A DNA stretch of 64,000 nucleotides from Amphiscolops sp. MND2022 (GCA_964187785.1 OZ076409.1:18106001-18170000); one strand, 5' to 3'. Positions 21,701 to 45,700 are shown, numbered from the stretch's first letter. Notes: generated from the letters alone by a model not told the origin. A program made the numbers and translations.

Positions 21701-24700
21701 CTACTGCATTTTTAAAGTTTCTGCCAGACAGACATATTTTCGGCATAATTTCAACAATGACACACTAGAAGAACATAAAGAATAAACGGTATAGACCAAC
21801 TTTTCAGTTTTCAAGTAGGTAACTTTTCACTACCTAGAGTAACCCCGACGTCTTGATTACATGATTACAGAGAGAATGATAACTGCGAATGCAATACAAA
21901 CTGGAATTGATGCCACCTCATAGTCACTACAATCATACCGGCCTGTTCGAAAGAAGGTAAGATAACGAATTTCCCAGAATAGTTCACAAAATGAGTAGAA
22001 TGAAACGTGACAAGCGCGAAACTTTTCCTCTCTGGATTAGAAGCTTAGAAAAATGAATGACACCTCAGACGTTAATGCACAAGGGAGAAAAATTAAAATC
22101 TAATATGGCATTTGAAAATCATTTTGCATTTGGGGAAGCACTGCATGTATTTTATTGAATCTGATATCTGGATAACAAACAAAAATATACAGGGCATTAA
22201 TAGATGTCTTGAGATTTTTCAGCCATGGCTAAATGCCTCCACTGAGTCAAACCGTAAAATGTACAAAGTAGTGGCACAAGTCACAAAATCCATTCAATCA
22301 CACGAGTTGGGAAAGACCAATTACGAAACACTAGGTGTGAACCCGACCGCTATAACAATCTACAAAACACTGGAATCAACAAAAATTGACAAAATCAAAA
22401 AAACTTTCCCTACCTAAAAGTATCAATTATTACAAAACTATCATGCAAGTTCTCAAAATGTCAAAAAAAGAAGCTGACTATGAAAAACAATGTTTGTGCA
22501 ATACCGAACAAAACGAACAAGACCTCTCTGATATGCTGCGTCGTTCTGAGACCAAAAAAAGTATAGTGTTAAAGATGGAAGCAGAAACGAAACTCAAATT
22601 GCACTTTCACAAATTGGTTCACGATCGCGAAGGTATTACTCCTGTATAAGGAAGGACATAAAAAGATCCTAAGACTACAGACCAATCAGTTTATTGAGTT
22701 CATCGGGCAAAATTTTCGGGAAAATAATTCAGAAGTGGATGATGAACTTCTGTCAAAATAGGAATCTTCTTGCCCCAAATAAGTAGGGCTTCAGCGGCAA
22801 ATTGTCTGCTACCCTAGCAAACGCTGCCATAACTGACTTTATTAGAATCCCCAGTGAACAACACTGATTATGCAAATTTGTTTCGTTGATCTCCAGAAGG
22901 GTTTTGAGACCCCAAATCATAATGTTTTGCTCGAAAATTGGAAAATCTTGGATTGCGAGAAAATTACAACCATCAAATACGCAAATATGCACCTGATAAA
23001 GGCAATACGTTAGTGTCACCATGTTGAGCACAGTAAAGCAAAATCTGCATAGGAGTATCACAGGGATGATCATCTTTAGGGACTTTTTCGTTCCTTCTCC
23101 ATCGCAATGATTTATCAAATTACTGAAAATGTACTGATTCACGCATCAAAATTGACATTGTAGCTGTATCTAGTTGGTTTGAAACTATCAATAATTGTCA
23201 GTGCTAAGCAAAATTTTCTGGCTACGGCAAACCTCACAACTTGAGATTTTTGTCAAGCGAATTAGGTTTCCAAAACTAATACTAGTAATTAGTTATCCAC
23301 ATGGGCAGACACTTGAGATTCAGGAAACTTTTAACTATATGGGTACAAAACCTTAAAAACTCTGATGTTTATGAAGTGAAGCTTTTGAGCAAAAAAGATG
23401 ATCAATTTTGTTCTACGTTCGTTTGATTACTTTAATACGGTACAGTGTACAATAGAATCTTGTGTAAAATTGAAGGTCTGCAAAGGAAACTAGATTTATA
23501 TTTTTTTGGGGGAAAAGTTTGCTGGCAGCAAACAGTTGACTGTGTTTGAGTTTTTCGTGGTTGAATTTACTCAGGGAACGTCAACTGTTGGAATCGCCTC
23601 GTATTCTCGTTCAATTAAACCAAGTCTATGATCCTATTTTTTCAAACAAAGAGGCGATTGAGTAACGTGTTTGCTCTATCATACAGTAGAACTGCTACTA
23701 ATAAAACGTCGTAGAAACAACATAAATCAAAAGTCACTTCTCGCTACATTGGCTACCTTTGTGACAACAAACAACTTTAAGAACTGTTCCATAGCTGATC
23801 AACTAAGACTTTTTAATTCTCCTCTTTGATTGGAGTTCATTTGGTTTCACCCTCTTCCCTCGTTCTGTGTCCTTATTGGTTGTTTTTCAAATACATATTG
23901 TTTCAATTTTTTTAACTACTCAATGAAATCAAGTCTATGAAAATTACCTTTATGTAATTTGACTTATAATAAATAAACGTTGAAAAAAATGGTTTGAGTC
24001 CCTACTTCAAATATAGGGTATTTTTGTTTTTGGCTCTCTCAAGCAGAAAAGGAGTGTTCACCCTGTTTCAAACAGTCGTATACTTATATGGTTTCCAACC
24101 TTAACATAAAGTAATTCGGCTATAACCTACAGTTTTGGACATAAATGTCTTTTACAATACCTTTAGTAACCTTAGCATTTCACCTAGAAAGCATCAAAAA
24201 CGTTTTTATTTCTGGTTACTTGAAGATTTCAGCTTTTGTAAAAAACTAGGGATCCCTTTGAAGAACTTGATATTTTGCAACTACGTGGAAACAAAAAGAA
24301 CGCAGAGAGTAAGATTTTCAATTCAGCACTGTCAGTAGATATTTCTCGAAAAGGGGGAAGTAAATAACTTCTAAATAAATAACTTCTAATTAAAATAGTA
24401 AACAACTTCTAAATAAATAAGTTCTAAAATTATTTTAGTAAATAACTTCTAAATTGCAATGGCATCTAGTAAATAACTTCCAAACAGCTATTTTGACGTA
24501 ATTATTTCTATAACGTCGTTAGCTATGTTCACATACCCCTAGTGCCCTAAATGCAGGAGCGAAGCGAAGCGGAGCGACGTGCCATATGGCCATGCCTCAA
24601 TGTTGCTACTTGGCGAAGGGAGCGAAGCGACGGGACGAGCCATACAACAAATATGCTAATCTTTTCAAATAACAGTTTTCGGAATAATAGAACGGTAAGT

Positions 24701-27700
24701 TTATTTTCGGAATAATGGAACGGTTAATTTATTTTCGGAAGAATGAATAGCAATCTTTACTAGAATGATTTCAGAAGTTACCAGACGCAAATGCATTTTA
24801 GAAGTTATTTACTAATATAATTTTAGAACTTATTTATTTAGAAGTTATTTACTAATATAATTTTAGAACTTATTTATTTAGAAGTTATTTACGTGATCCC
24901 TCGAAAACAGATCCAAATTCGAAGTACTCTTAATTTTAGGAGCTTACACATTTTAAGAAAGTTTCCATCCATTTGTCGATGCTTGGTTTCAGATGTTCAA
25001 AAGAAGAGCGATTACTTTTTTGTAAATGAAAGATTAGGGATTTCAATTTCGAGTTGTTCCAGGTTGATTATTCGTTTTATTCGATGCCACGTGACTCACG
25101 ATAGCTTACAAGGTGTCTCATAGGCTGGTTCTTGAATGGTTCTTGTTCTTGGAGTGGAACTATTGTTAATATAATGACTTTGTAATGCAAAAAAAATGCA
25201 TGACCATTGAATTTCATTTCCATTATTAACGATAGATTCAGACATATGTTGCTTCCTTCTCAACACAAAGCCCGCAGAATTTTGACTTGTTACTTACTTG
25301 TGCATTGTGTAACGGCGGTTCCAGAGGTGGTTGCCCAAGGTGTGGCGGCCCCAGCTGTTCTGTACTGAGCCACGATGGTATACGTGAATTCAGTTTGGCT
25401 TGCCAGATTCTGGTCATGAAAGAAGAGTTGTTCGCTGGTAACTGAAGCGGCATCTACTATGTCCGTAGTGTCCCTAGTGACAGTTATTTTCACACTGGGG
25501 TCAGCTGCCGTGTCATCTGCATCCACTCCATACTCCACCATTACAGAAGTTAGCCCGACTGCTTCTACATTCAAAGTGGGTGCTTTTGGTGCTGAAAAAC
25601 ATAACTGAGTAGAAGGTACATAGATTTCCGAAATATTACTGGGCCGAATGTAAGTTACCACACTATTGTTTTTGTTTCGTTATCCTATCTGTAAACATGT
25701 ATGGCAAAGGCAAGGAGCCTAGTCAGCTAACATATGTTGTGTAAGTGTTGAAGTGGTTGAAATAAAATCCAGTGTTTCAAAGTCCAAGCTGAGTTAGCGT
25801 AATGGTATGACTGTGTATCTCAATTGGAAACAAGCCGGAAACAGCATTAGTCGGCGCCCCGCTTAAGGCTCACAAATTGCAAAAGTACTTCAAAGCGTCA
25901 AAGATTCTCAGCTGAATAACTTCTCAATTTCCTTTGGGCTTAAAAATGCTTTTAAAAATTCTCACTAAAAATCACAAAATCAAAATTTTTGTTTTTTTCC
26001 CACCAGAAAATAAAACAAGAACCCTTTTGTGAAATATAATCTCCAAAAAGAGAGCACTGCGCGGAAAAAACCAAAAGGGGCGCCCTTTGGGCCTAAAAAT
26101 GCTTTTTAGAATTCAAAATTAACAAAACCAAAAGGGAGGGCATTTTCGAAAAAAGTCTCAAGTTGCACAAAATTTATTAGGCTTCGAAAAAATGTATATA
26201 ATTCTGACTAATTCGCCATTTTGTAGAGTTTTTGTACAATTTTAACATACGGCATGAACTGGCCACTTCGAGCGTGATGGAAAAAAACACGACGAAAAGT
26301 TGAAATAATATAATAGCCGCGTTTTATTTCATGAAGCACTGACTAAAATTCAATGAGCTAAAAGACAAAAGACACAAAACACTAAATCAAAACGTAAATT
26401 GAGACAAAACTTCGCATTTGGAGTTTTCTAAATTTTCAAAAAAAAATTACGTTGACAGTTGTTTGAAAGTTCTACTGGAAACTTTTTGGAAACAACTTAA
26501 AAAGAAGCCCCTAATCAGTTATTATTAACTTCCATCAATATTTCATGACTGCGCCATGATGATGAGAACGAACTACAGGTTCTAATATACAAAAAGGAGC
26601 TTGAATTAATAAAATCACAGATTTAAATTTAAAGACCGCAAAAATTACAGGCGAAAACGTTAAACATGCATTTTTCCGTAGGACATGAATTAGACATAAA
26701 AGTCCTAAGTGCCCAATTTTCTGAGATTTTGATCAGAATTACAAGGGAAAACAACTTTCACATTGAATGAAATATTAAAATGGTAAATTGCAATCTACTT
26801 ATGATTTTACAGAACTATTTGCAATCTTTATAGCCTTAAAGGTGTGAGAGACTATAGTTCATGAGTATACTTAAGAACTACTAAATTCGCAGGCCACGTT
26901 TAAATATTTAAGCGTAATTTGTTTCATTCAAAATGAAGGAAGTTTCAAAAACCCACCTGTGTAGCAGTCGAAAGTTTTTTCGTTTTTACATTCGCTTGGA
27001 TCACCAGCGCTTTCAAAAATGGACACGATTTTGCAATCGAATGTGGTTGCGGGTGCAATATCGGTAAACTCTGAAGAGGTGATAGCGGTGGACAGAGTGG
27101 CGCTGCTTAGTACACCAGAAGCTACGGTAGTGTACGCCGTCGCGCTCTGAGTTTTGATCATGACGTCATATTTGGTTGGAGCTGGAGTTGGGTTTGTCCA
27201 GGTGATAGTGATGCTGCTATCAGTGGACGTAAACAACTGAGTGGCCAATGCAGGTTCTGAAACGATGTAGACATTTTTATTGAAACCCGATTCGTAAATT
27301 TCAATTGGAAAGTTGTAGAACCGTAAAGCATTGAACATTATTAGAGAAATGAGCGTTTCTTTTTGAATTTCGGGAGACTCTAAATCCACACAAAAAGATA
27401 AGATAAAGTTAACTTCCACAGAAAATGACTGAAAAATTATCAAGTATCAAGTCCAGATCAGTGTGATCTCTTCTTGTTGGAAGTCTAAAACATACTCACT
27501 GGTGCAGAAAGTAGCAGTAATTTCATCAGTGCAAGAAATTCCAGTCACAACAGATGTTATCTTGACAGTGTAGTCTGTTCCGGCAGTTAGTGAAGTTGAG
27601 CCATCTGTAGTGGTGAAAGTGTACTCCAGAGTACTACCGCTGTCGATTTGAGGGGTGAAGGTGTGAGAGTCAAGAGTCACTTCGTACTTGCTGGGGTTGG

Positions 27701-30700
27701 GAGTCGCCGAAGGGTTGGCCCATGTGACTTTGAAGGATGACGTAGTTTTTGTGTAACCAGCATCTTCAGCCAGAGTTTCCGCTTGGTGGGGTTCTAAGAA
27801 AAACATAATACTGTGGAATGCAAACATGAATGTTTTTACATCGACCAAAGATTAGATCAAGGCACAACTGTTTCACAATGCTTTCAGACAGCAAACTCTT
27901 TAGCTATAACGACCAAGACTTTTAACTTCTTTTTATAGAAACCACTCATCTATCATGACGTTTGATTTTTCGCAGTTTTCATCCATTAAAACTAGCGAAA
28001 CTTTTTCGCGTTCCTCACGAACCTCGCTCCAAAAATTGATAACTTATTCCGTTTTTCTATTTTTTCCTGATACAACTTTATTGGGCACTAACCAGTTTGA
28101 GCTGTCATTATACAAAGAACGTCTGTTTAAGAACTAACTTGTACATTGCGATTGAGCAGGAGCGGAGTTGGAATAGGTTTCGTACGTCGCAGTCAAGACA
28201 TAGCTGTATGATGTTCCTGAAATCACAAATTTCTCAAATACTCAATCAATAGAAGTGTTTACAATGAGCTTCTAATGCAAATTAAACGAACATCAAATTG
28301 CCAACAGTGAGTTGAAGGTTAGCTGAAGAGTGCAAAATGCCAAAAGATTTTGATTGTACGATTTCGATTAGTGCGCGTCGAAAAACAGACATTCGATTTG
28401 ACATTACAGTGCGTAGACAAGCTTTTTCTGCGTATTTTGCGGAAACCATGACACCATTTTGCTGATTCCGAGCTACGCTTACGAAACTCCAGTCTCTTTG
28501 ATGCTGGCGGAATCTAAAAAAAGCCCATCTTTTGATGTTGCTGAAACGAAGAAAATCTTGAATGATTGATTGGTTAATAAATTTATTGTGGAATCCGGGA
28601 TATGAAATGCGGAAACTAAGACAGAAAGTTGCCGACAGATGTCTCGGTTTCCACGGCATGTGTCGAACCCAACCGTGTGGGTCGGCTTTGAAGGACCTTT
28701 CGAGGTTGACTGTCTGTTTTCGGTGTCTGTCTTACTTATGACAGCCATCATTAAGTCCTTCAGTTGACTGAACTCATTCTGTAGTTCGTTTATCTTTCTC
28801 TCATAACTCTCTTTTATTTCAGATAACTGAGACGAGATATCAGAAACCTCGTTGCTATCAGAGTCATTGGCAGAAGACTGAGCCATGTCTGGGTCCGTTT
28901 GAATGGGTGTTTCTGATGAGGAACTAATAACTCTTCCGCTTCTGAGTTCTGTGCCTAGATCTGGGTTCATAGAGGTGAGAGAAAAGGAATTATGAGTGAA
29001 GACTGGATTCTGGATGATTTTCGATGTATTTTACTATTTTGTGCCGTTATTCGAACTCAAACTCACTATTTCTGAACTTGAGATGTAAATGCGATGAGTT
29101 TTACAGTAAGACAAGGATACTAGTAAAGAATGAGAATAGTTAACGAGGATTAAGTAGAGTTCATCCAAATTTCATCGAATAGATATCAATCAAGAAATTA
29201 CTCAGAGTTGTGAAGGTAGCGTTATTTACGATGAATAAGAGATATGTTTTCTAGTTCAAATCTGTCGTAATTCGTCCAACTGGACAGTAGCTAATCGCAA
29301 TTTCGGTCTGTGTAAACTCTTATGGCGGTCCAAAATACAGCAGTTCACGTGTCTTTTCGGGCTGGTAAGACGCTAAATCTCTTACCAGCCGACTCTTATT
29401 GGCTATTGCCAGTTGGTGCTAATTGGTAAGTCACGTGACCGGTGTTGTGAACTGCCGCAAGTTGGCCAAACCACATGGTACATCTACATATGCTAATTAT
29501 GACTAATCATCACTTTACAATGTCGCAATTGCCTGCACACAGTGTCATGGTTTCTATAGCAACTCAAATCATTCAATAATGTACTAATTTCAAGTCAAAA
29601 CAGAGTAAGCTGCATCACAGGATGAGAAAACGATGTTTTTCCAACTAATTCTAGCATTAAAATCAATACTTCAAAAGCAAAGATGGAAACGCGATGAATT
29701 CGTCAGAATATTTGCTGATTTTCAAGTCTAGTTTAGCTCTGGATGAAAATGCGATGAATGGTGGTCTTTTAGCTCGAAAATCAACACGATATGAACTGAC
29801 GATGATAAAAGGATGAACTCGTCTTCAAAATGAATGATTTCCAGCACAATTTAAATCAACGATGGTAAAAGGATGAACTCTCCTCGAAAATAACTAATTT
29901 CCAGCACTAGTGAAATTGACGATGAATTCAGGATGAATTCAGCCAATAAAACAGGTGAAACAGCTAATTCTGCAGTGAAGACAAATATACGATGACTTTA
30001 GGATGAATACATTCAATAAAACAGCAAAATCTAATGAATGAAATTCCAACGATGGGTTTAGGATGAACTCAACTGAAAATTCGGCTAGTTCTAACGTAAG
30101 TCGAACTAGCGATGAATTTACGATGAACTAGTGATGAGTTAATCTAATAAAACAGATATCCAGCACTTCACTCTTTTTTAGGATGAATTAAGGATGTACT
30201 TTCTCATTTCTTGTAGTTTCTGTTCAGGACGATGAAATATAGATGTGTTATGCTCTTTTTAAGAAATGAGAAGCACATTGAAGGTTAATAATCACAAAAC
30301 GACGATGAGTATAGGATGGCTTTCATGCATTTTAAAGTCCCGTGAGATCCGCTGATGGATCACTAAATAAAATCAAATATATGTCCCAAATTTTGTTCAC
30401 CCGCAATCTTGGCGATGTGATTGCGATGAACCTTGATAATATAGCACCGTAATTTCACTAATAGATCAAGTTGTAGGATCACTAAGTCCGCTGATGGATT
30501 AGTGATGAACTTTCCTGAAATTCGTCACGACTACAAGTCCTGAGGCGAGGGAGCTAGTAGAAGTTACAGATTCCATTATTTCTACATCTCTCGGTCCAGT
30601 CTGACCGGAAGACTTCTCTCCCTTATCGTGACAAACCAATATTGAATAAGATAGCACATTAAAAGCTATTGGCAAGATCATTTGTGCGGACACCGGAATT

Positions 30701-33700
30701 AGAGCGCTCAGTATTAAGTAAATATATATAGCTCAAACTCAGGGGGGATAGGGATTAAAGTACAAGTAACGTAGGGTTGCTCACAACCATGGCTCTTATT
30801 ATATGACATCATATTGCCCATATCTAAGTACATAAGACATAATATTTACATTACAAATATTTAGTAGATTATATTTCCATCATGCTGGCATGACACTCCC
30901 CGGGGCGGGATTTGGACTGAGAGTGCAGGGACCAAATGCGCAGAGGATGGTTGTCTCGGCGTTGGCTTCGACTGATCCTTCGTTTGGTTGGGGAGAAAAT
31001 GGCCTTCGTTAGTTCTGAATTGGCATGTCCTTCGTTTGTTCTGTCCTGTGAGAGCTTCTCTGAGAAGAGGACCTTCGGTAATCGTCTTTTCTGGCATCAT
31101 CCTGGGTGATTTCGGTTAAAATTTTCGACGCGGCAACTCTAATTCTTGGTCCATCGAATGTCCGCTGACCTGCATTTTATTGGTTGTCATGCTTTTGACG
31201 GGAGTTTCGGCTGGTTATTTTCGGTAGAAGCTGATTTCTCGGAGAAAAGTTTCCCTCCAAAACGCCTACGCTGAGTAAACAATTCGATTAGCTTCACTGA
31301 CAAATTGGCAGCGAGTCAGGGATGAATGAACGATGAATTGTTTGCTCAGCGATACACTGATGCTGTTTAGCGGAATGGCTGGCGCCGTTACTTGTTTACT
31401 CGCGATGAAAGGAGATGAATCGTTGCCATAGCAACTGTCAAAAGTTACTTCCGCTGCTCGACTTTTGAGTGAAAGAGAAAAGAGATGAATTCGTCGCCAT
31501 AGCAACTGTTGCTCGATCTGATTGGCTGAGACTGAACTTATAACTGAAGGAAAATACAACCGGTTGTCAGCAGCATTCTCATCCATAAATCATCCTCCAT
31601 TCAAGTCGGTTTGAAAATCGCCACGATTTCCTTTGCGCGTTTCCGCTCAACTTCGTCGGTATAGATCTGAGACTGGCAGCTGTCAACAAATCAAATACTT
31701 GAAGTTTTTTGTCAAGTCCTGGGAGGGGACGATCCATTTTCAGAGAAGGCTTGAGTTGGTTGTACTGGGAAGAAAAGTGATGTCAGTATTTGAAATCGGA
31801 GAATTTTCATCGATTTTTCATCTTCTGAATTCAAGTATTTGATTAACATGGCATTCAAGCTGCGCCGCTTTTTGAAATCTTCTATTGAATTTGTTCTTCT
31901 GTAATCATGGTTGATCAGGCCATTTAATTACTGATCAAATTCTCTGCTCCTGGATTCTTCGATTTCTTTCCTTCTTTCACCGTCTTCCATTCTTTTCAGA
32001 TTGTTTTGCAATTTTTCGCGATGTCGGATATCAACTCCATCTATTCGTTACCGGAGACCGAGGCCACAGAAAGTAAGTGCACTATTTTTTCTCTTCTTCA
32101 CAAACGGGCCGGGGAATAATTAGGAATTGAAGGCGTGTCTTGGTTTTAGCGGACTCCGTTCACTCTGTCGGCATAATTTCCGAACTGACTACTTTGCAGA
32201 CAGTTCCGCCTCAAGATGCTCCGATCCCTGCAGCATCTCACGCACCTCAGTATCAACCTGAGCAGCAAACTGAACAGGCCCCTAACGTCCCGTATCTTCC
32301 GCAGTGTAAGTACTATCCTTCCATTCTTCAGTTCAGTCTTCGAATCCCTCATATCTCATCCTTACTCTGTCCAGTAGCTGACTCCTTTTCGTATGGTGTT
32401 TCAGACCACTACCCCTGGTATGCCTCCCTAGGCAGCATCACCTTCGGGTGGTATGACCGCCACATGCGGGACATGCTGCGGGATAGCATCCAGCAGTACA
32501 GTGAGTTTGTCAATTTCCTTTTCACTTCTCTAGGCTATCGTCCGAACACTCCGATGTGATTCCGATGTAAACATCTCATCTGCATGTAGTGTCCTTTGCG
32601 GTCGATTACCCATGTAATTCACCTTCGAGATGAATTTAGGATGTGTCATGAACATTCACAGCTCTTCATGACTGACTCGCTGTAAATCCCATTTTTGAAG
32701 ATGAGTTTTGGATGTATTCTTCTCCGGTTTTCTTTCTTCGCGCGGCGTACGCGCTCTTTCTTCTCTTATCGTCGTCGTCCAGTAACTGTTTCTTCTTTCA
32801 GGCCCCACACCGATCCACGCACCAAGGCCTCGTCCCATCAGCTATTCCGTAGGAGTAGGGACGAGTGATTTCGCCGCAACTAGTGCTGATGCTAGCACTC
32901 AAGGAGGGCCTCCTCAACTTGACTTGTCCTCGTTCCTTCAGGACTTGTCATTCGGGAGTGTAAGTTCTCCTGTCAGGCAGGCGCCAGTGTCTGTACTGTC
33001 GCCAGTGCTGAGGGGTTCTTGCGCCGCTAGTAGTCCTCCTCCTGCTCGTATCACTCTCGACGCTGCTGTGAATGCTGTTGTCGATTGCGTGGATGCAGTC
33101 ATCGATGCCGTTGTCGATACCTCTGATCGAGCAGTCCAGGCCGTTGTGGAAGTCAGTGAGTCCTCCACCTTCCATGATCCTCCTGTTGAGGAACCTGTCA
33201 TCGTTGCCTCTTCTTCTGTTCCTGCCTTTTCAGTCAGCGGCACTGATACACTTGGTGATGCTTCCGTGAGTACTGCCGGCGGTGCTGAGACCCTACTTGA
33301 AGTCCCTGGTGACTTCTCGTCCGACAGCCTTCTGCCTGCTGAACCTGACCGAGAATCTGCTTCTCCCAGTGCTGCTCTCATGTCGACCGTGGCTTCTCCC
33401 ATGGGACCCAGTCTACTGGATAGTGATGACGAACCAATCGCGTCCCGTCTGCCAGGTTAACTAAACAGCTTTAAACTGGTGAAATATCTGATCAGTAGAT
33501 TTTTCATTCATTTCCTTCTTCGCTTTTGCTTTCACTAGCATTTTTCACGTTTTTCTTCTTTTCTATCCATTTTTCATCGTTCTTCTGTTTTCACTATATG
33601 GTTTTCTGCAGTTTTCCATTTTCCATCACATTCTCATCGTCAAAAGTCGTTGAACAATAGTTTTCGCTCTCTAGTCCTTTTTAGAAATTTCATCTCTTTT

Positions 33701-36700
33701 ACATCTTTAAAATTTTCTCTTTTCGGTTTTCGCTATTTGTCGGTGTTTTCTTTTCAGTTTTCATCTCTTTTTCATCGTTAAGTTGTTTTCGCTCTAAAAT
33801 ATCTCAATTTTTGGTTCAAAGTCGTTCTATTTATCTCTTTTCCATCGTTCAAGTTTTTCATTCTTTAAGGTTTCCATTTTTCATTCTGGTGGTGTGCAAA
33901 ATGCATCTCTTTTTCATCTTTTCGTTTTCTTCGTTTTTCGCTTATATTTCCTGATGAAAATATTATTTTACATCATTTTTTCATCACTCCGGGTGACTTT
34001 TGGAAGTTTGCGGTGGTTTTTTCATTTTTCAGTTTTTAAAGATTATTTTAAGATGATCTTGGAATTTTGTGGGAACGTGGTCGTTTTTAGTGGATGTGCT
34101 ATGTGTTGGCATGTGATTATTTCTGTTTGTAGGGCGAAAAGTGATCAAGTCATGGTGGTTTTCTCATGAATACTGTGGGCTTGCACTGGGCTATGCACGA
34201 AGTCATCAATCGCGGCTATCATTCGTTCGATGTTTACTGTGCAAGCGTGATATCAATGTTGGCAGCCGTGGTATCACTACTTTCATGGAGCATTGTCGTG
34301 GGCTCCGTCACCATCGTTTGGACTGTCTGATTCGTTTGTTTCGGGATTTACCGTTGCGGCGACGCGACGGGTCATTGATGAGTAATGAAGAGAGTGTGGA
34401 GTGTAGGAGCAGCCTGGGCGGTGCAATGGTGCCGTTCATTGAGACGTGCCCCTCCTTTAGTGTACTGGAGGTGTTTGAGTTGGAAGCAGCTGGACGACCT
34501 GTGTGGGGGGACGAGGAGGAAGAGGATCTATTGTGTGAAAAGACGGTGCATCTGTTCGTGTGCCTGGTTATTGACTCAATCTATCGTGGGTGTCAGTTCG
34601 CCAGCGTAACGAGTTTGTGGGAGGTGATGGTTGCGTCAGAGCCGCAACATGCCTCTCTTTTCGGTGTTACTTGCGAAGTGAATGACGTGATGGTAATTCG
34701 TATTTCTTTTTGTTTTTTGTTTCATGAAGGTTCGTGTAGATGGAAAAAAAATACATTTAGTGGGTGGTTTTCCATAGGTAGTTTTGAAGCTTGGGTAGGG
34801 GGGATTTTCAACTATTAATTGTGTCGGGTTATTTTTAAGCGGATAGTGAATTAATGTATAGTAAAGTTGATGTTTGTTTTTAGAGTGTGGTTCTACTGAG
34901 TTTGTGGCCGTACGCGATGAAGAGGCTAATCACTCTGTGGTCTAACTGTGGGTTCACTAGCTTTCATGTGGCTGTTGGGCAGGGGCGCGTGACTGGCACG
35001 GTCACAATGTGTTCTCTAGAAGGGATCAGTCAGTACTGTGTCTTCAGTTTTTGTCTGTCTCAGGATTGGGAAAAACGAGTTGTCACGTGGATGATTAACA
35101 TGTGGTGTTGTTTGCTTGGAGAACCTGTTCCACTTGGACTGTGTTGCGATGCGTTGCCACAGCTGGGTGGACTGTTCCAAGCCGCCACTGGCGTTGGGTC
35201 ACTGGAGTTGAAGACGCTGTCATTGTGTGAGATCAGTCGGACAATTGTGGACGTGGGAGGGCGGGCGCTCGGCGGGACTGATATTCATGTGGTGCTGAAT
35301 CATCTGCAGAAAAGACTGAAAGGATATGTCAGGGATCCTCTGTTGTTGAGCTGCCCTCATCTGTTGCAGGTCGGTGTAGTCTTCCGCTTTTATTTGAGTG
35401 TTACTATGAGTTGTACTCTTTGTCTGTTTCTGTTGTTTGTATATTGGTAGTAGTTTGTATTGTAATATTTTGTTTTATCTATGTGGAGCTTGTTATGTTT
35501 TGTTTAGGCGATTTTATCCGGGGAAGTCTACGTGTGGACTCTTGCTGATGTGTGCGATGAATTACGTGCCAATTGGGCAGAAGTGCTGTGTCTAGTTCGA
35601 TTCGCTTCGGGAGACGGGCCAGTAGATGCGTTGGATCTTACTTTGAGGGTGGAGTTCGGGATCCCAATCAGGCTCCGGGCACTTAGTATGGTCTATCGTG
35701 CTTGTTAGTATGTTGTATACTTACCGGGTGGGAAGTTTCTGTAGTTGGCCGTTTTTACGTATTCGAGTGTTTAATCAATTCGCATTTTTCGGGAAGGGAA
35801 CGGGGGGGGTTAGTCCGATTATTTACTGTGTATAGAATTGTTGTGTTTTTCATTTCAGTAGTGACGTCGTACGAAAAGAGTTTCGGGTCTTCATCATTGC
35901 GGAGTTGCTACTGGGCGATCGAGAGTGCATTCTTTGTGAAACGCCTGCTGACTCTACTGGTTGACGAAGAGAGCCTGCCCACTGATCTGGATATCCGTGG
36001 GTGGTTGTTTGTGGATGTAGACAGTTATGTTGTGTCAGCGACTAAGTTACAAGCCCTTATCGCGAGTTTCAGCTCGGATGAGAATTTGACGGAAGATGTG
36101 GCTGTGTATGAAGAGGATGTGTCCCGAGTGCCTAATTTCTTATTGTCTATCGTCAGGAACGTATTATTGCTACCAGGGATTCGTGACGATCTTGCTTTCG
36201 TGCGAAGTGTCTTTAGTTCACCCAGACTGGTTTGTGTGGCGGAAACTGATCTTGTGGCGGAAATTCGCAATTTTACTGGTTTACTTGTGGAAATGGGGCG
36301 GATCAGTTTAGTCGAACAGGATCGAATGGAGCTCGGATTTCTGGAATTTATAAGGGCTTTTCGGTGCGAGCCTAGGCCAGCTGGGGCGACTGCCGAGTAT
36401 TCAGCCGTTGATCTGTTGCGTTGCTGTTCCAGTCGCGGGTCACAGAGTCTGTTACAACTTGTCTTTTGCCTGGGAGGGGTGGTGCAGAGCACTTGCAATA
36501 CCATATGCGAAGCGATCGGGCACCTGCCGAGCGATGTCATGAGCTGTGTGTGTGCAGTAACCTCTGGTTATTTGTCTGCTAATCATGTGCGAAGTTACGG
36601 TAGTGTCAGTGGGCCACTGATGGAAGAAGTGATGGAGTCGCACAGAAGGCTCGTCGATCTATCAGAGATTACAGAGGGCATGTTGTGGGACGACGTCGGT

Positions 36701-39700
36701 ATCGTGGCTGGGGAAGATTATCGTCTCCAGTTATATGCTAGTCTTGGTTACGATGTGACCGGGGAGCGGGCTGCCAGTCCCGAGATTGGAAACTGACTTA
36801 TTAACTGTTTATGTTGTTCATTGTTTTGCTATATAATTTGTTGTATTTACATATTAGTGTAGTTATTCATATGTTGGGAGACCCATGAAAAAGGTCAATA
36901 AATGGAAAGCACAGTAATGACCATAGTGCGAATGATACAAATCCAGATGCTACGGCGGAAAGATCGGTAGTAGTGTGTTTACAACATTAGTTATTTTGGT
37001 GCCCAACAGCTGTTTTTCTTTTGAGTTGTTAGTGATAGTTACAGAGGATATTAAGTACGTGTAAATCAACAAGTTCGTCCAACAGTTCACTTGAAGCATT
37101 GTCTTCGGTATTTTTGTATCATAGATCATCGGTCGCGCATCGCTTTTATGGTGTTCATCGTTATTACATCTCGTGGTAGTGTAAGTAACTCGTCAGCGTT
37201 TGATCTTTGATTTTTCATCTCATTTTCATCACGTTTTCCTCGGTCGACCAAGCGACGTCGTGAAAACTGTTTTTGTCATCGTTTTTACATCTTTCGGTGC
37301 GTCAGAAACATTGCATGTTGTTACATGTGGTTTTTCTACGTATTTCATCATTTTTTCATCTTGCGTTTGATTTGAGCACTTTCGTGCGTTATTTGCTATA
37401 GTTCATCGTTTTTGCATCGCAAGTTTGTCTTGTTCAGTTTCTGCTCATTTTGCTGTATAGTTCATCTTCTTTTCATCGTGCGTTTGAAATGTACGGATTT
37501 TTGCGTGTTTTCGATGTTATTTGGCTATAACGTAAGCGGGGGTTGCATTTTTCGTGTCCGGAGGAAATTTTTATTAATATTGCGGTGTTTCGGATTGTTT
37601 TCTTCATGTATTTTAGCGTTATACGGTTATAACCATTTGTCGTGTTTTTGAATTTGCATGAATTTTATGGTACATGTGTTTTAATCATCGTCGTCATGTT
37701 TCTAATTTGTCAACTTCGGAACGTCATTGCATGTATTTTTAGTTCGAATTCTGGTGACCGCCGCTTGCGTGGCAGTCGAAAATAAGTTCACTCAGCAGTG
37801 GTACTGATAGCCTGTAGGCGTGCAAGGTACTAGTGGCTTCAGTCCAGAGCTGGGTGAGTGGAGCTGCTCCGCTCCTTTCAGATAAATGGAATCTCGTAGT
37901 TTCGGGCTATATATAGTCTATATGTCATTTTTTCGGTCGGTTGTTTGCCATTATTCGTCGAAATGGGTTTGTCCATTTGACGGTCAGTCCGATCAATCAA
38001 TGTGATTGACATCTACGGTTATGCATGTGTCCAGTTTTAGACTATCTGTTTCTTGTATTTGCATGTATGGATGGTTACATGATGTGCTCTTTTAAATGGG
38101 TTGCCCCATTATTGACATGTCGTTATATGTTCGGTGGTAGTTTCATGTTTTCTAATTTTATTTTCGTTCATTTGGACAGGGCTTTGTCGTCACAAGGCCC
38201 CTACAAAACTAACTGAGAATCCACTAGCCGCTGGATAACCAACGCAGCAAGCTTCATCCGAATATGGTTGTGAGCTCCCCGCCTCAACTAACCAGCACTC
38301 TTTTCAGAGAAATGCCAGCCAGCACGAAGGAATGATTTTAGTTTTTCGGTAGGGGTGTTTTGTATTTTATGAGCTGATGTTTACTGGGGGGTGCTCACTC
38401 CTTTATTAGTTTTGTAGGTGTTTCGTCAGTTCTTATATTTTGCATGTAAGTTAGTAGACTTCATGTATTTTCGATTGTTTGTTTCATTTTTATTCGTCTA
38501 GGTTCGGATGGTTTTGGTGTGAATTGCATATATTATCTCATTCATTTTTGAACGGTACATGTATATTTCCGTGCGTTGCTCATTTGTATTGCATGTAGTT
38601 TGGAATTGTTAATTGCTTTCGTGACGTCATTGATTTGGCAGGTCTTTGAACTTTACATGTATTGATCATTTCATTTTTGTGTCGCATAATTTCGTTGCAT
38701 GATTCGAAATAAGGTCGGTTGTTTTTTATCGTTTCGTGGAGTTACATGTTGTTTGCGAATTAGCTGATTTATTGTGATGTTATGTTGATGGTGTTTCCCA
38801 TCACAAAGAGGTGTTGGTAAGTCATTTAATATTTTCGAATTTCCATTTAGACTAAATTCATCGTTTTGACATCCTCCAGCGAAGCTAGAGTATTGTGTCA
38901 GGTTAACGATAAATTCGGTCGCGATTTGATGGTAGTGTCCATCACAAATTCATCTCGTTAATTGATTTCATGTAATTTATGAATAATTGGATCGAGTTCA
39001 TCGCTATTTCATCCTCTGGCCGAGCTAGAGTCTTATGATAGCATGAACGTGAGTGCGTTCGCATTCTGATGGTATTTCCCATCTCAAATGCATCGTTAGT
39101 AAATATTGCATGTTGATTGGTCTATTTTTTGACTGAGTTCATCACTTTTTCATCTCTCGTGTGTCTGAGTTAAATTTTCGTGTGGTTTCATCCTTTTTTC
39201 ATCTCAAATTTTGTGTGTTGTTTTTTCTGGTTTTTTGATCGTTTTTCATCCGTTTTACATCTCGTTTTGTTTGTATGCGGTTTTCATGTGATTTTTAGTA
39301 ACTTTTCATCCATTTTACATCTTCATGTACTTTTTAAGTTAAAATTGCATGTAATTCGTTCGTTTTTGTGATTTGTTCATCCGTAACACATCTCAGATTT
39401 AAAGTGAAACTTTTCTTGGCTAAATCGTTACGTCTATTTTGTTGGTCTTTCTCAGTGCGTTTCTAGCTGAAGTAATCTCATGAATGAGGAAGTCTGGATA
39501 CGTTTTCGGTGTAGGGTTCTCACGTAACCTGTACCTACTTTGATTTGATCTAGACGGTCTAGAACTCATCCTTTCTTCATTTTCGTTTTGCGTGTTTGTC
39601 TGTTGTGACTGGTTTTCGTGTTGTTCGTCTCTCAGAGGTACTCTTATCCTACTTTCATCGCGGGGAGGCGGTAGAATAATTTCTTCTCGCGTTCCAAATC

Positions 39701-42700
39701 TAACTGTAGGTGGTCTAAAGTTGTTGTGATCAGTTTCTACTTGCTGATAGTCTATCCTCGTGGTTATTTCTGGTGGAATTACTTGTGGAGTGTGTTGTTC
39801 TTGTACCCGAGGAATTGTTTCTTCTGAAGGCTCTTTTTCGACCAAGTCTTGATCTAGATTGTCATTCTCATCCTGATCTACTTCGTCGGTCATCGGAATA
39901 TTCGAGTCGAAAATGTCCGTGTCTTCAACCCTTTCGGTATCTGGGTAGAGATGTTTGGACATGTTGATGTCGTCAATCGGAAATTCCGGTTTGAACAATC
40001 TCAGTCGCATGCGATGTACGCACTGAGTTTGGTGTGTGCCTACTTTGCGGATGATGTAGTTGCTATCGGATAGCACTTTAATCACCTTGTACGGTCCTTT
40101 CCAATGGAAAGTTTTAAACTCTTCTTTGCTTCTCTGAGAGTCGTACTTAGGGTCTAGTAGGAACACAAAGTCATTCACCTTCAGTGGCTGTGCTCGTGCT
40201 TTTCTATCATAGTACGTTTTGTACTTGTGATAGGCGGAAATGATGTTGTCTAGATTGTCTCTGAAGATAAAATTCATTTTGTCTAGAATTTCGTTCACGT
40301 CTTTGCACTTTGTTTCAGCCGGTTTGTTTGCGTTTCGGAATTGCAGATCTAGTGAGTTGTATGGTGTTCTTCCGTGGAAAATTTCGGTTGGTGAGCATTT
40401 CAGTGAATCATGATACGTTGTGTTATGGGCCATGATTGCTATGTCGACATAGCGGTCCCATTGTGGTCTGTCTGCGTTTACACTAATCTTAAGGATCTTT
40501 TTCAGTTTCGCGTGCGTTCTCTCCACCATGCCTATTGTCTGCGCGTGCTTTATCGTGGCATGGGAGATGTGAATATCAGCCGCTTTCGCGATTTCAGACA
40601 GAAGTTCAGCCGTGAACGCCGTGCCTTTGTCGGTCAGAATGTGTTTGGGCACATACGCGTGTTTTGTGAAGATCGACAGTAGTCCTCTGACTACGGAATG
40701 TGTGTCAGGTCTCTTCAGCGGAACGGCGAACAGGTAGCGCGAAAAAACGTCAACAGCCGTCAGAATGTGTGTAAAACCGTTCGATGCCGGGAGTGGACCA
40801 ACGATGTCTATTTCCAGCAGGTCTTCTGGTCCGTCGCACGGGTCGTAGATTTTTTGTAACGGTGGACGTAGTTGCGTTTCTTTTACACTTTTAGACTTCA
40901 TGCAGTTTTCACATCCGTCAAGGACTTTTTGAACTTTATAGGCTAAGTTAGGAGAGTAATATCTTTTACGAAGTTCATACAACATTTTCTTTAAACCAGG
41001 GTGTCCTTGTACCGGGCTGTTATGTAGAGTCCTAATTATTTTCAAAATACAGTCTTCAGGAACGACTAACTGCTTATGAGACTCTAGTCCCATGTGGTCA
41101 AAAAACTGTCTGTACAAGACACCGTTTACAACTTGTAGGCGTTTTCGATTTTTGTACAACTTTTGAAAAAACTGGTCTTGCATGTTAACTGGGTGTTGCA
41201 AAATTTCAGTACCTTCTAAAAATCTAATCATTTTTTGGATAACCCAGTTATTTTTCTGGACCTGAATTAGATCGATCCCCTCGGCGGGGCTAACCTGACT
41301 CATTACCGGGTGTGATAATGATACTTTACGGATGAATTGCGAGAGTTGAATCGGCTCGTCCACGTCTGTGAGGCGGTACGTCAGATGGTTGTCAGTCGCG
41401 AAGTCATCTGAGGCCGCAGTTCTCTCACAGTTGGTGAACTTCATCCCTTTCCCATCGTCATGAGCCACGTCAGTGCCAGTTGCCAATTTCATCTCTTTGA
41501 CATCCTTCTGGCGTTTGCATCTGAGTGGTTCGCTCGCGGGGAAGTAATCAGGCTCGTCTTCCTCCTGTTTTGGTGTACGGGAGGCGATGTCGATCTCGAT
41601 CCTGTGAATTGGAATAGTATCAGTCAATTTTAAATGTACACGGTCTTCAGGTCTAATCTCAAGCCGAGATAAGTAATCCGCTGCGGGATTTTCAACTCCT
41701 GGAACATGTGCTAATAGAAAATTGAACTGAAGGGTTTGATCGCAAAAGTTCCAAAGTGAAGGCGGGATATGCTTCGCCTGGAAAAATCTAGTCAAGGCCT
41801 TATTGTCAGTCATAACAATGATGGGTTTTTCGCACCCCACAAAATGTGGCCAAATTCATCGAATGCAAAGTGCATAGCTAAAAACTCTTTGGCATACATT
41901 GTTAGAGACATCTGGCCGCCCTGAAATTTCTTAGAGCCAAATGCAACAGGGGCGTATGTATGTTTGACTGACGGGTCTGCATAATCCTCGATTAACAACA
42001 CATAGCCTGCAGCGTGTTCGCTGGCGTCACACATGATTACCAGTTGTTTATCTGGTAATGGCAATTTCAGAGACACTTTTGTTGCTTTTAACAAACTTTC
42101 ATTAATTTCAAAAATAGCATCTTTATGTTGTTGGTTCAGCTTGAAAGGGACGTCTTTCTTGATGAGTTCCTGTAAACAACAAGTTTTATCAGCTAGACGG
42201 GGAATGTAAGACCTGTAAAAGTTCACAAAACCAAGATAACGTTGCAACGCTTTCACTGAATTGGGGGGTTTCAACTTCGTTAAATAGTCTGTTACGCGTT
42301 TTTCAATGGGAGCAATACCAGTGCTAGAAATGGTTTTTCCCAAGTACTCAATTTGTTTTTGTCCAAATTCACATTTACTCATGCTAAGTTTAAGACCAGC
42401 TTTTTGCAATTGTTGAAAAACAAGTTCAAGGTTGGTAATCAATTCTTCGGGTGAGTGTGCTGCAATTCCAATATCGTCAACGTATTGGGCACAGCGGTCC
42501 GCTTTGACCAGGGGGTCCAAATACTCACGGATTACTCCTGTAAATGCTGACAAAGAACGATTAAGACCTTGTGCTAGACGTAAAAATGCAAAAGTTCTAG
42601 ATCCAAAATTAAACGATAACAGTTGGACAGATTGCTCATCGGCCATTGGAATGCAATGGTAGGCCTGGGAACAATCAAGTTTGCAGAAGTACTTTTTCCC

Positions 42701-45700
42701 GGCCATGTGTTGGGCAGCGTCAGCAATTGTTGTTACGGGATGATTGTGCTCACCGTAATCGTTTTTGATCAGGTGGTTTATTCTTCTCAAGTCAACTAAA
42801 ATCCTCAATTTACCATTAGGTTTACGCTGAGCAAATATCGGGGAAGAGTATTTGCTGTGAGGCAAAGTAGTTATAATCCCGTACTCTTGCATTAGGGCTA
42901 ACTCCACGAGCAAATCGTCCTTCAAATTTGTCGGAGTCGGGAGACTTTGTGAATAAACAGGTTCTTCATGTTGAGGTGTTAACTTAACTTTAAAATCAGT
43001 GTTCATGCCAATATCAAAACGGTGTCTAGCAAAAATGGAGTTGTACTTTACCAGCAACTCCTCTACCTGTAACCGTTGAGACGGAGTAAGAAGCGAGTCG
43101 TCCCAGTTGAAGTTCTTCAGGAAGTTCATCCGTTGTTCATCGGATTGGGACGGGTCAAGCTTCTCGAGCTCTCGCAGTGCCAGAATCTCATCATAAATCC
43201 GTCGCTCAATTGCGTTGAGTTTGTCTGGCTCACTGCACGTCTCGGGAGTTGGGTACCACTTGGTTGACTTCATTTCAGGGTTCACAAACAGTTGGTTGAT
43301 CACTGCTTCGGCTTCATCTGGATACTTGGTGATCAAGTTCAAGTGTTCCACTGGCATGGGCGTGATGTTTGCCGCCTGGTGTGGTGTCGGGATGCGAAAG
43401 TGTGCCAGAGTGGTGTTGGCTTCAAGTGTGTACGTGTGGTTGTTTGGGTTGGTGACCTGGATTGTCGTCTTGCCCTCGTCTAGGTCAACCAAAGCTGGAG
43501 AAACAAGCAAACACGTCTTTCGCATGAATCCAGGTGAGCCCTCAACTGTACCAGTTGTAAGTGAGATGTCCGCGTCACTGTGGACCTGTATCATCACTTG
43601 ATGGAGAGGAGGGATCACTGTTCTAGTACTGGAACACAAATCAATTAAACCAGTTTTGAATCTGTTGTTCTTTTGCTGTCTAACTTGCATGGACATCATG
43701 TGATTAGGGAAGTGGACAAGGTGGTTTTTGATGTCTAAGTTGACTGAGTACTTTTCAAAAAAGGACATTCCAATTAAAATTGTTCCCATTGTTGGAAGGA
43801 TTAGGAACGTTTCTTCGAATACTTTTCCAGCAACGTAAAATCTAAGTAAGACTTGCTTACGCACTGGGACTAAGTTCCCGTTTGCTATTTGAATTTTGAA
43901 ATTCGGAGGGGGGAATTCTTGAAGGATGGCTTCTGGATGAGCCGTTGTTATTTTTCGCAGTTCGGCTTCAGACATTGCACTTTGTATTGCGCCTGTGTCT
44001 AAAAGTGCGCTGTTTTCGTATTTGTCAAACTGAAGAGGGACGTACAGCATTTTATCTTTCTTGTTTAAATGTAAAGTGGGACTGAGAACGTGAATTTCTG
44101 TTTTAATTGCATGTTTTTTAGTTTTTGAAACGTTAATACTACTCTGTTTTGCATGTTTTTTAATACTAAGCCGTTTGTCGATTGTTGAGTGTGAAGTCGA
44201 GTCGTCGTCTAGATGGTGGGTTTCCATCTCTTTGGCATCTTCCACCTGCCTCATGGTGTTTGGTTGCCAGTTCATCGTTTGTTCATCGTTGATTTCAGCG
44301 AGTGGAGAAAAACGGCTGCCGTTGAGTTGACTTGCATTTCTCATCGCTTTTTCATCGTTGGAAAGTCTTCGCTGATAGACGTCGTCAGCTTTTGGTCGTT
44401 TGTCCAGTGAAGGCTGCCATTTCTTCATTGGACGGTCGTGTGTAGTCGGTTGAGTCGAAAGTCGTTGGTCGCGCGTTGTGTTTCTAGCGGGCGGAAATCG
44501 TGGCGGAATCAAAAACCCTGATTTATGTCTTCATCAGAGTAGGTTTCTTGGTCTTCTTCTTCGGTGACTGCTTGCATAGGGTTCATCGGCTTTTGTTGTC
44601 GTTTTAAGTCTTGTCTTCTAGTTCTGTTGTCATCTTGTGAATTCGTTGCGTATGGAATCTTTCCATATGCAGAACTGCTTTCTTTAGGGACACGTCGTCT
44701 GCAATCCCTTGCTGAGTGGCCTGTGTAACCGCAAATCTGGCAGACCAATTTTGGATTGTATTTCGGCTTATCTGGATCGGCTGCTTTCTTCATTGGGATT
44801 GCATCCTCCTTCTTTATGCCGTTCGCTTCGTCTCGTTGTCGGGCGCGACATTCCGTTTTGCGGTGTCCTGTCTTTCCGCAGTAGAAACATTGTCCTTCAA
44901 ATCGTTTTCGTTCTGTCGGTTGTGCGGTCGTCGTTGTTGTTGTAGGCTTCGTCGTTGTAATCGTAGGTGGTGCTGAGGAGGTGACCGCGTTGAATGGTTG
45001 GATTGCCGTAGGTGGCGCGACGTACTGCTGGTACTGGTATTTTCGCATTAGGTAGGTTTTGATTTCCTCTGGGGAGCTCTCTTCTTTGTTTGCCATGGTG
45101 AGCTCTTGTTGAATCTCGACTGGCAGTTTTCCAAACAGGAACATTTTGATTATTCTGTCGGCCTCATTGCCGAAGGCTTGTTTGGCAGTCTTCTTGAGAT
45201 TTTTGAGGAAATCGCCGAATGTTTCTGTTGTGGGATCATAGCGTGCTTGATCCCATTTGTAACGGGCCACTTCCTTTAGATCCTCTTTTGCAAATTCTTT
45301 TCTGAAGAGGTCGAGTACGTCCTTTAGTGTTGTCATCGGCGTTATCTGGATGGATTGCCAGTATTCTATTGCGTCATCTCTCAAAAGGCTTTGAAAGAAG
45401 TGTAGTTTGTTCTCCTCGGTGATTTTGTTGGCAAGCGGGCTAAGGTGGTTGAGGAGAAGGTGTTCAAATTCGACGAATTTGTCTTTTTGGCCTCTGAAAT
45501 TTGGCACGTGTGTCTGCAGAAGCTTCGTGTTGGTGGTTGTGTTTTTGATCCGTTGGGGGATCGTCTCGATTGCATTGAGCAGTCGTTCCTCATTGCTTCT
45601 GGGGGTTGATTCTCCTTCGTCTGAATCGTCTTCTTGGTAACTTCTGAAGTTGGTGAAGCTGGTGGTCGGGCGGTTGGAGCGGGTTTCTGTAGCTCCTGTC

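Follow-up and report, generated by a model that had tools for sequence, protein, structure and literature searches.

The stretch of DNA described here, called the window throughout, is a 64-kb segment from Amphiscolops sp. MND2022 (GCA_964187785.1 OZ076409.1:18106001-18170000). It contains a complete Ty3/Gypsy retrotransposon of 19.3 kb (window 28661-47939, minus strand), bounded by long terminal repeats (LTRs). Between pol and the 3' LTR of this element, on the plus strand and thus antisense to gag-pol, lies a gene of eight exons that is very probably a selected accessory gene of the retrotransposon and not a passenger. Here we present the structure of the element and its antisense gene, together with the copies and diverged relatives of the gene, its exchange as a cassette, the features of the predicted protein, and a bipartite motif, TCATC-N6-WCATC, that is scattered over the element.

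Structure of the retrotransposon

The two LTRs are 2235 bp long each, start with TG and end with CA, and differ at two positions (28715 and 30494), which confirms an earlier note on this DNA that had placed the gene between near-identical LTRs. A Pfam scan of the open frames between 39420 and 46074 delivered, in this order, zf-CCHC; gag-asp_proteas (weak), RVT_1 and RT_RNaseH_2; and Integrase_H2C2, rve and Integrase_p58_C. Read on the minus strand this is the order gag, protease (PR), reverse transcriptase (RT), RNase H (RH) and integrase (IN), which is the Ty3/Gypsy (Metaviridae) order. Next to the LTRs, a stretch starting with TGG after the 5' LTR and the sequence GGGGAG before the 3' LTR were recognized by eye as a candidate primer-binding site and a candidate polypurine tract. 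The features of the element and of the gene are summarized in Table 1.

Table 1. Features of the retrotransposon and its antisense gene in the window, with the distribution of the TCATC-N6-WCATC motif
Feature	Position	Strand	Remarks
Target-site duplication, left copy	28656-28660		GCATG (5 bp)
3' LTR	28661-30895	-	9 motif copies; 60-nt tandem repeat at 29797-29925
3' LTR-to-ATG stretch	30896-32020	+	Candidate polypurine tract at left edge; candidate promoter and 5' untranslated region (UTR) of the antisense gene; 3 motif copies
Exon 1	32021-32072	+	52 nt, ATG
Exon 2	32150-32305	+	156 nt
Exon 3	32405-32500	+	96 nt; peptide strongly conserved across subfamilies
Exon 4	32802-33455	+	654 nt; low complexity, rich in Ser, Pro, Ala and Val; hypervariable, with in-frame length variants
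Variable cassette	32806-37143	+	Exon 4 through 3' UTR; only two patches of 69-71% nucleotide identity to the C10 element (see text)
Intron 4	33456-34132	+	677 nt, T-rich; periodic repeats of about 70 nt bearing the motif (2 exact copies)
Exon 5	34133-34692	+	560 nt; contains a BED-like zinc finger (34156-34326) and, after it, a conserved stretch of 120 aa
Exon 6	34884-35369	+	486 nt; 162 aa in every lineage examined; weak RNase-H-like fold matches
Exon 7	35508-35685	+	178 nt; 59 aa in the five lineages where detected
Exon 8	35859-36796	+	938 nt including TGA; all-alpha domain of 311 aa; conserved C-terminal GERAASPEIG
AATAAA polyadenylation signal	36897-36902	+	101 nt past the stop codon
Gene-to-pol spacer	37144-39419		58-60-nt tandem repeats; 11 of the 12 motif copies between stop codon and pol, all plus strand; twelfth copy at 39377, also within 36797-39419
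Integrase frame	39420-41855	-	End of RNase H, zf-H2C2, rve, Integrase_p58_C
Protease/RT frame	41810-44530	-	Includes start of RNase H; frame change within 41813-41855 in the window copy
Gag frame	44509-46074	-	Two zf-CCHC knuckles; first ATGs at 46014 and 45930, inside the 5' LTR
Candidate primer-binding-site region	45687-45704	-	Adjoins the 5' LTR; reads TGGTGACAGG... in element orientation; by eye
5' LTR	45705-47939	-	
Target-site duplication, right copy	47940-47944		GCATG (5 bp)
Motif, each LTR		8 minus, 1 plus	9 matches
Motif, LTR to ATG		2 plus, 1 minus	3 matches
Motif, intron 4		plus	2 matches
Motif, gene-to-pol spacer		plus	12 matches
Motif, pol		plus	4 matches
Motif, exons of the antisense gene			0 matches

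The antisense gene

Joined in frame, the eight exons yield 3120 nt, that is 1039 codons and TGA. All seven introns have the form GT...AG, with the acceptors behind pyrimidine-rich tracts, and the GC content is 0.48-0.59 in the exons and 0.32-0.43 in the introns. The earlier note had described eight GT-AG exons joining in frame into about 1045 aa with an AATAAA downstream; exon joining reproduced the junctions, the open frame and the signal, while the exact length is 1039 aa. A scan of the whole window against Rfam gave no match. No open frame of more than 314 aa was found among 150 scored exon-5 matches, which is a weak test for intron-less, processed copies of the gene.

Copies in the genome and selection

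A DNA search of the organism's own genome with 34133-36796 gave 280 first-look candidates, of which 40 were scored, all of them full-length with 98-100% identity. Candidates are given here and below as first-look numbers, not as copy numbers, and the sampled loci are a small part of the family. The 30 best-scoring loci, window copy included, were aligned. Exons 4-8 are open to the same stop codon, with four GT-AG introns, in 22 of the 30 copies, the window's own among them, and the eight splice dinucleotides of introns 4-7 are kept in all 30. The eight broken copies carry length changes in exon 4 (L004, L007, L024), exon 6 (L028) or exon 8 (L016, L027), or one stop codon each (L015, L021). Exons 1-3 were checked in the 800 bases upstream of 12 plus-strand loci that are intact in exons 4-8 (the broken L015 and L028 excluded); ATG, open frame and splice sites are kept in all 12, and one subfamily has an in-frame insertion of 3 nt in this region. 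Two of the aligned loci, L017 and L019 (aligned to 32802-33455), have an exon-4 variant of 672 nt instead of 654 and about 240 differences over exons 4-8, and both are in frame.

Compared with the window copy, the 29 other copies show 1.01% substitutions and 0.05 indel events per kb in exons 5-8, 1.96% and 4.5 per kb in introns 5-7, 1.79% and 6.8 per kb in intron 4, and 6.95% and 0.58 per kb in exon 4. The indel rate of the introns is thus about 100 times that of exons 5-8. The check named in the earlier note, whether the exons of other copies stay open while the introns drift, is borne out by both the open frames and these rates.

Selection was examined on single-base codon differences in exons 5-8, with the window copy as reference and without a consensus. 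Differences shared by at least two copies comprise 33 synonymous and 14 non-synonymous changes, whereas differences private to one copy comprise 40 and 69, respectively; the two classes differ (Fisher p = 2e-4). Non-synonymous sites outnumber synonymous ones by about 3.1 to 1, which gives ratios of about 0.13 for shared and about 0.54 for private differences. In exons 5 and 6 the private ratio is near neutrality (0.84 and 1.02), as opposed to shared ratios of 0.10 and 0.07. Shared differences mostly arose in replicating lineages, private ones mostly after insertion.

Cassette exchange on a young backbone

A DNA search with the PR-RT-RH part of pol (41837-44500) gave 3557 first-look candidates, and the best 40, which were scored, are all 99-100% identical. 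Among these best 40, the window copy and 15 others have an exon-5 match on the other strand at a distance of 7.64-7.70 kb, which is the arrangement of the window. Exon 5 is of the window type (98-100% amino acid identity) in seven of the 15, of a type with 69% identity in four (C7:10246042, C3:41488359, C2:98115444, C7:6845430), and of a type with 60% identity in the remaining four (C10:46220443, C6:71049618, C8:4660144, C2:97434952).

The C10 element, which is of the 60% type, is 96.3% identical to the window over 28660-32805 (LTR, 5' region, exons 1-3 and intron 3) and 94.7% identical over 37144-41996, while the segment in between is the variable cassette of Table 1. Exon 4 of the C10 element is an open frame of 274 aa whose acceptor is shifted by about 30 nt and which is still in phase with exon 3. 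Between cassettes, synonymous divergence is saturated (pS 0.72-0.81) and non-synonymous divergence (pN) is 0.22-0.37, with pN much lower than pS in each exon of each pair compared. Together with the excess of synonymous changes among the shared differences, this supports the inference of the earlier note that the gene is selected for a role in the life cycle of the element.

Judged from these sequence comparisons, the part from exon 4 to about 350 nt past the stop codon is a swappable cassette far older than its backbone, of which at least three anciently diverged versions exist. Because 32806-37143 diverges so strongly between near-identical flanks, mutation in place is insufficient, and recombination between elements is the natural explanation, most simply by a switch of templates in the course of reverse transcription. 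Mosaicism also shows in ten of the aligned copies (L012-L016, L018, L024, L025, L027, L028), whose first 1.5 kb past the stop codon (36797-38296) diverge from the window by about 14%, as against only about 2% in the gene itself. This step after the stop codon is a second recombination boundary in the family.

Diverged relatives

A search with exon 8 among 1.84 billion representative proteins delivered 68 homologues, all unnamed and not longer than 367 aa, which originate from assemblies with single exons called as open reading frames (ORFs); no longer protein of host type was among them. Exon 5, searched against longer proteins, gave no match. One of the homologues, P0034, is 22% identical to exon 8 of the window and is encoded at 100% identity in the genome of the window, within a second element, designated lineage 2 (L044+L031+L043). 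The LTRs of lineage 2 are 99.1% identical, its gag-pol lies on the strand opposite to the gene, and the gene is at the same place. The lineage 2 gene aligns to residues 318-1038 of the window protein with the exception of exon 7, which was undetected by tblastn.

The lineage 2 protein shares 54% identity with the window protein over the finger and 23-39% elsewhere, whereas identity is 78% in PR-RT-RH, 68% in IN and 54% in gag. The antisense protein therefore diverges faster between lineages (23-54% identity) than pol and gag (54-78%). Five further relatives (L045-L049) have exon-5 identities of 88, 73, 69, 59 and 57% and exon-8 identities down to 41%. They have a common exon partition, with 186-187 aa in exon 5, 162 in exon 6, 59 in exon 7 and 309-311 in exon 8, and a GT donor and an AG acceptor with pyrimidine tract were seen at each boundary inspected in four of these five and in lineage 2. 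The same partition is thus found in relatives of 23-88% protein identity. Some single copies are broken: L045 has frameshifts, L046 one stop codon, and lineage 2 one frameshift in exon 5.

In the window copy the pol frame changes inside RNase H (41813-41855, minus strand), where lineage 2 reads through; conversely, the pol of lineage 2 is broken between the integrase core and the C-terminal part, where the frame of the window copy is continuous. The frame shift of the window coincides with homopolymer runs, and an assembly error is possible there. The gag frame of the window begins within the 5' LTR (45705-46074, minus strand; the same sequence occurs at 28661-29030) and reads across the candidate primer-binding site, and the gag frame of lineage 2 likewise overlaps its LTR, by about 370 nt.

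Predicted protein

Residues 1-319, encoded by exons 1-4, are of low complexity and variable, except for the exon-3 peptide and both ends of exon 4. The best-conserved stretch of the protein is the start of exon 5, where W8, F9, H11, Y13, C33, C36, H53, C54, H59, H60 and C64 are invariant in seven exon-5 sequences of 55-88% identity. The finger follows the pattern CxxC-x16-H-x5-H with aromatic residues in front; the signature of BED fingers consists of Cx2C...Hx3-5[H/C] zinc ligands preceded by conserved aromatic residues. The nearest clusters of a language-model search (Atlas) for exon 5 are of BED type (score 0.85), which counts as no more than a lead.

The domains were modelled piecewise, exon by exon. 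The exon-6 model (46 sequences, pLDDT 62.8) consists of a helix, three strands and further helices. In Foldseek its best rows reached E values of 0.045-0.3 and were mostly retroviral integrase cores, together with IS621 recombinase, Cas12 and Hermes; in VIA-align, Hermes (8edg_A) held rank 37 (Z 4.9, root-mean-square deviation (rmsd) 4.8, 100 residues aligned), with residues 1-108 matching Hermes 152-264. The exon-8 model (20 sequences, pLDDT 70.7) is all-alpha and had no Foldseek match below E = 1; in VIA-align, Hermes 8edg_A held rank 7 (Z 5.0, rmsd 9.4, 167 residues aligned), with residues 1-242 matching Hermes 368-609. These weak matches are worth stating because two separate models match one chain collinearly behind a BED-like finger. 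On these models an RNase-H-like core in exon 6 is probable, though weakly supported, and the odds that it derives from a transposase are about even.

No conserved catalytic acidic (DDE) triad is visible in the protein. Among 20 exon-8 homologues Pfam gave only single stray matches with E values of 0.0018 or above, and a PDB sequence profile search gave no match at E <= 1. The C-terminal GERAAS resembles the 'SERxFS' block in the hAT frames of this genome, with a different spacing to the upstream W and Y. An assignment of exon 8 as hATC by hhalign ('E = 1e-18') was rejected, as a reversed control and an unrelated alignment scored equally.

The bipartite motif

TCATC-N6-WCATC has 39 matches in the window, all inside the element, with 0.39 expected and at most two in any of 100 shuffles. 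The spacing is strict: each other spacing from 0 to 15 gave 0-1 matches. The starts of the half-sites are 11 bp apart, about one helical turn, and the extended form of the motif is T-TCATC-[G/C]-N-TTTT-[T/A]CATC. Since its orientation flips between the LTRs and the interior (Table 1), double-stranded DNA is a likelier target than RNA.

The same motif with the same strict spacing has 24 matches in the 19.9 kb of lineage 2 (0.06 expected), and 24 matches were also found in 14 kb of the C10 element. The LTRs of lineage 2 and the window align over the last ~300 bp only, and both hold motif arrays. Conservation was measured at seven sites in the 29 other copies, comparing the nine specified core bases with 120 flanking bases; divergence of the core is 0.004-0.027 at six of the seven sites and 0.073 at one, against 0.035-0.123 in the flanks, and the exact pattern is retained in 25-28 of the 29 copies per site. 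The finger, which is the best-conserved protein part between lineages (54% identity against 23-39%), and the motif are thus conserved together.

Tandem repeats of 58-60 nt occur in the LTRs (29797-29925, 46841-46969) and in the spacer (37344-37487, 39186-39322); each unit holds the motif, and the rest of the unit has drifted (72-78% matches). Within pol, motif pairs 63-69 nt apart are located at 44272-44356 (plus strand) in the window and at 15241-15319 in lineage 2. The pairs look position-matched, and one copy is identical in sequence in the two lineages.

Surrounding sequence

Two adjacent open frames at 26931-27851 (minus strand) resemble fibronectin type III weakly (E = 5e-4 and 5.5e-5, below the Pfam cut-off) and are probably exons of a host gene adjoining the insertion. 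Repeats outside the element comprise a dispersed pair (4012-4405 and 18131-18637, 80-85% identical), a tandem pair of about 310 nt (51603-52271, 81% identical), and an inverted pair of 115 nt (24360-24472 and 24778-24892, 90% identical). The genome holds many true remnants of hAT transposases, with 2215 first-look candidates for PF05699, of which 150 were scored, all above the cut-off. It also gave 114 matches to cadherin repeats above the Pfam cut-off, many of them arranged in tandem within long open frames, which marks it as metazoan.

Proposed function of the antisense gene

In the explanation favoured here, which is held with moderate confidence as a whole, the accessory gene encodes a regulator that reads the bipartite motif and is exchanged between elements as cassettes. 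The gene would be transcribed antisense to gag-pol, with its promoter located within the 3' LTR or immediately inward of it, and the seven introns would be removed from this antisense transcript only. The genomic RNA keeps the introns because they appear there as reverse complements, which the spliceosome does not see, and since they stay unspliced, reverse transcription copies them into each new insertion. The product of 1039 aa is predicted to consist of a disordered, variable N-terminal third, a BED-type finger, a conserved cysteine-rich core of probable RNase-H-like fold and an all-alpha C-terminal domain, a layout that in the models is collinear with hAT transposases. It would be a nuclear, sequence-specific DNA-binding factor, and binding to the approximately 30 motif copies per element (one LTR and the non-coding interior) would control the element's own transcription or chromatin state. 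Cassettes would be swapped between near-identical backbones by template switching of co-packaged RNAs, as we presume. That the antisense protein is the reader of TCATC-N6-WCATC is a tentative step, somewhat short of an even chance. The furthest-reaching version, in which a Gypsy family took in a hAT-like transposase and made of it its own site-specific factor, reading about 30 sites and maintained as ancient, recombining cassettes, is doubtful.

Several points weigh against this explanation. Protein and motif are linked only by co-occurrence and co-conservation, and a host factor, Gag or integrase could read the motif as well; four of the motif copies lie in pol coding sequence, where conservation has another cause. 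The Pfam zf-BED match has 18.8 bits (E = 0.0016), below the cut-off of 20.6, and E <= 0.1 is reached in only three of seven members. By the notes that come with the tools, none of the structural matches rises above noise (Z about 5, Foldseek E >= 0.045). Pfam found no hAT dimerisation domain (PF05699) at E <= 0.1 in the 20 exon-8 homologues, while true hATC domains of the same genome score 44-82 bits, and no conserved acidic residue is seen on the first strand of exon 6. Of the selection data, the 30 copies, as the best-scoring of 280 candidates, are biased to young, intact copies; the contrast in indels between exons and introns owes part to the T-rich, repetitive introns; and private changes are still below neutral (ratio about 0.5), so that shared and private differences are not a clean split into selected and neutral ones. 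Finally, the window copy, with its pol frame change in RNase H, may not be autonomous.

The alternative that comes nearest likewise takes the gene as a selected accessory gene, with a product that counteracts host defence (silencing or restriction) and a motif read by a host factor or another protein of the element; an arms race or frequency-dependent selection would then have left the old cassettes behind. Cassettes with saturated synonymous sites on backbones with 99-100% identical pol DNA would fit such a role, as would the hypervariability of exon 4, with 6.95% substitutions against 1.01% in exons 5-8, and the lower conservation of the antisense protein than of pol and gag between lineages. 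However, pN is far below pS in every exon and pair, with no positive selection visible at this resolution, the most conserved part of the protein is a finger of DNA-binding type, and the motif is conserved across the same lineages. We regard a counter-defence role as unlikely, though it deserves some weight.

A DNA transposon of hAT kind, independent now or until recently, which inserted into a Gypsy element and has hitch-hiked since, is a quite improbable origin of the segment; the protein would in that case serve the transposon and not the retroelement. The BED-like finger, the weak collinear matches to Hermes, the many true hAT elements of the genome and the sharp borders of the cassette (32805/32806 and 37143/37144) would agree with such an origin, but a repeat search gave no terminal inverted repeats (TIRs) at the cassette borders or around the gene, and no 8-bp duplication was seen. 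Exons 1-3 lie in the backbone outside the cassette and are nevertheless in frame with exon 4 in both cassette types examined, position and orientation of the gene are constant in all elements examined, lineage 2 included, and neither a hAT dimerisation domain was detected nor conserved catalytic residues seen. A one-off nested insertion, which the earlier note had named as a possible objection, is likewise at variance with the same place and orientation in 30 of 30 copies and with the occurrence of the gene in lineage 2 and in the other cassette types, without flanking TIRs.

It is still more improbable that a single transduction brought in a host gene which has been a neutral passenger since. 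Retroelements are able to pick up host sequence by transduction (excerpts of PMC7264820), and the antisense protein has no match to known retroelement proteins; a transduced mRNA, however, is expected to be intron-less and sense-oriented, the gene is under purifying selection in active lineages, the first-look candidates that keep it number in the hundreds to thousands and span lineages and cassette types, and all 68 homologues are exon-sized (up to 367 aa), none being of a longer host type. A role of the antisense RNA alone, such as regulation of the element by double-stranded RNA, with the frame incidental or the exon model a chance assembly, deserves hardly any credence: non-coding antisense transcripts of retroelements are known from micropia and TART (excerpts of PMC7264820), but synonymous changes are in excess, the indel rate of exons 5-8 is about a hundredth of that of the introns, and lineages that are saturated at synonymous sites have identical exon lengths.

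Comparison with known systems

Among plant elements, Grande (gene23), RIRE2, Retand and PvRetro13 are described as having extra antisense ORFs in the region from pol to the 3' LTR (excerpts of PMC7264820, PMC11963269). According to the same excerpts, the antisense product of Grande is nuclear and has its own promoter, the plant ORFs are predicted to be DNA-binding, and a TRP28 domain is encoded by 97% of Retand clusters (PMC11963269, PMC7264820). The window gene resembles those of plant Tat/Retand elements in place, orientation, the long pol-to-LTR region with tandem arrays, presence in most copies and predicted DNA binding. Being antisense, situated between pol and the 3' LTR and common to most family members, it falls under the definition of an aORF-3R. 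In contrast to the plant ORFs, which mostly encode TRP28, it has seven introns, 1039 aa, a BED-like finger, an animal host and cassette exchange. No Pfam match to TRP28 (Transposase_28, PF04195) was found in the frames holding exons 2-3, 4, 5, 6 and 8, nor in 20 exon-8 or seven exon-5 homologues. The word 'intron' occurs nowhere in the text of the two plant papers (PMC11963269, PMC7264820).

A further antisense extra gene, brtn, belongs to fungal Boty-like Gypsy elements of Botrytis and Sclerotinia (excerpts of PMC7264820, PMC8365987); the statement of the earlier note that antisense extra ORFs are known in plant Gypsy lineages thus holds for plants, yet they are not confined to them. The window gene and brtn, compared by description only, have in common that they are antisense extra genes of non-plant Ty3/Gypsy elements, and differ in that the host of brtn is a fungus. 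The source study for brtn is reportedly Zhao et al. 2011, Virology 417:248.

HBZ of HTLV-1 is an antisense protein gene driven by the 3' LTR, with a nuclear role in transcription (excerpts of PMC11963269, PMC7264820). As with HBZ and other deltaretroviral antisense genes, the gene predicted here codes for a protein on the antisense strand of a retroelement. HBZ, which has a spliced form, is a small bZIP protein, whereas the window protein has neither bZIP nor another Pfam domain beyond the weak zf-BED match, and intron number and size differ greatly.

With hAT transposases such as Hermes and their domesticated BED-finger derivatives the protein would share, on the models, the order of a BED-type finger, a probable RNase-H-like core and a long helical domain. 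The hAT transposases bind to short repeats dispersed over the ends of the transposon, an arrangement similar to the motif arrays of the window element. Unlike in hAT elements, structural matches are weak (Z 4.9-5.0) and there is no hATC, conserved DDE, TIR or 8-bp duplication. A full-text literature search, with most subscription journals and all repeat databases outside its scope, gave no antisense case from an animal, no case with a BED finger and no case of cassette exchange; a prior description may exist elsewhere.

Significance

Descriptions of antisense extra genes in LTR retrotransposons have come from plants and one fungal family; the present case is from an animal. A large gene with seven introns shows how much cargo the antisense placement can protect from splicing, and if the furthest-reaching version above is true, antisense genes with introns would be a general way for retroelements to carry complex cargo. 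The zinc finger and the strictly spaced motif, which occur and are conserved together, provide a concrete candidate for the function of the protein. Ancient cassettes on near-identical backbones point to frequent recombination and to the long-term upkeep of alternative versions of the accessory gene; on the furthest-reaching version the set of cassettes would be comparable to virus serotypes or immunity types, and retroelements would diversify a self-encoded regulator by modular exchange. With hundreds to thousands of first-look candidates in a genome of 1.07 Gb and very young insertions, the family probably matters for the recent evolution of this genome.

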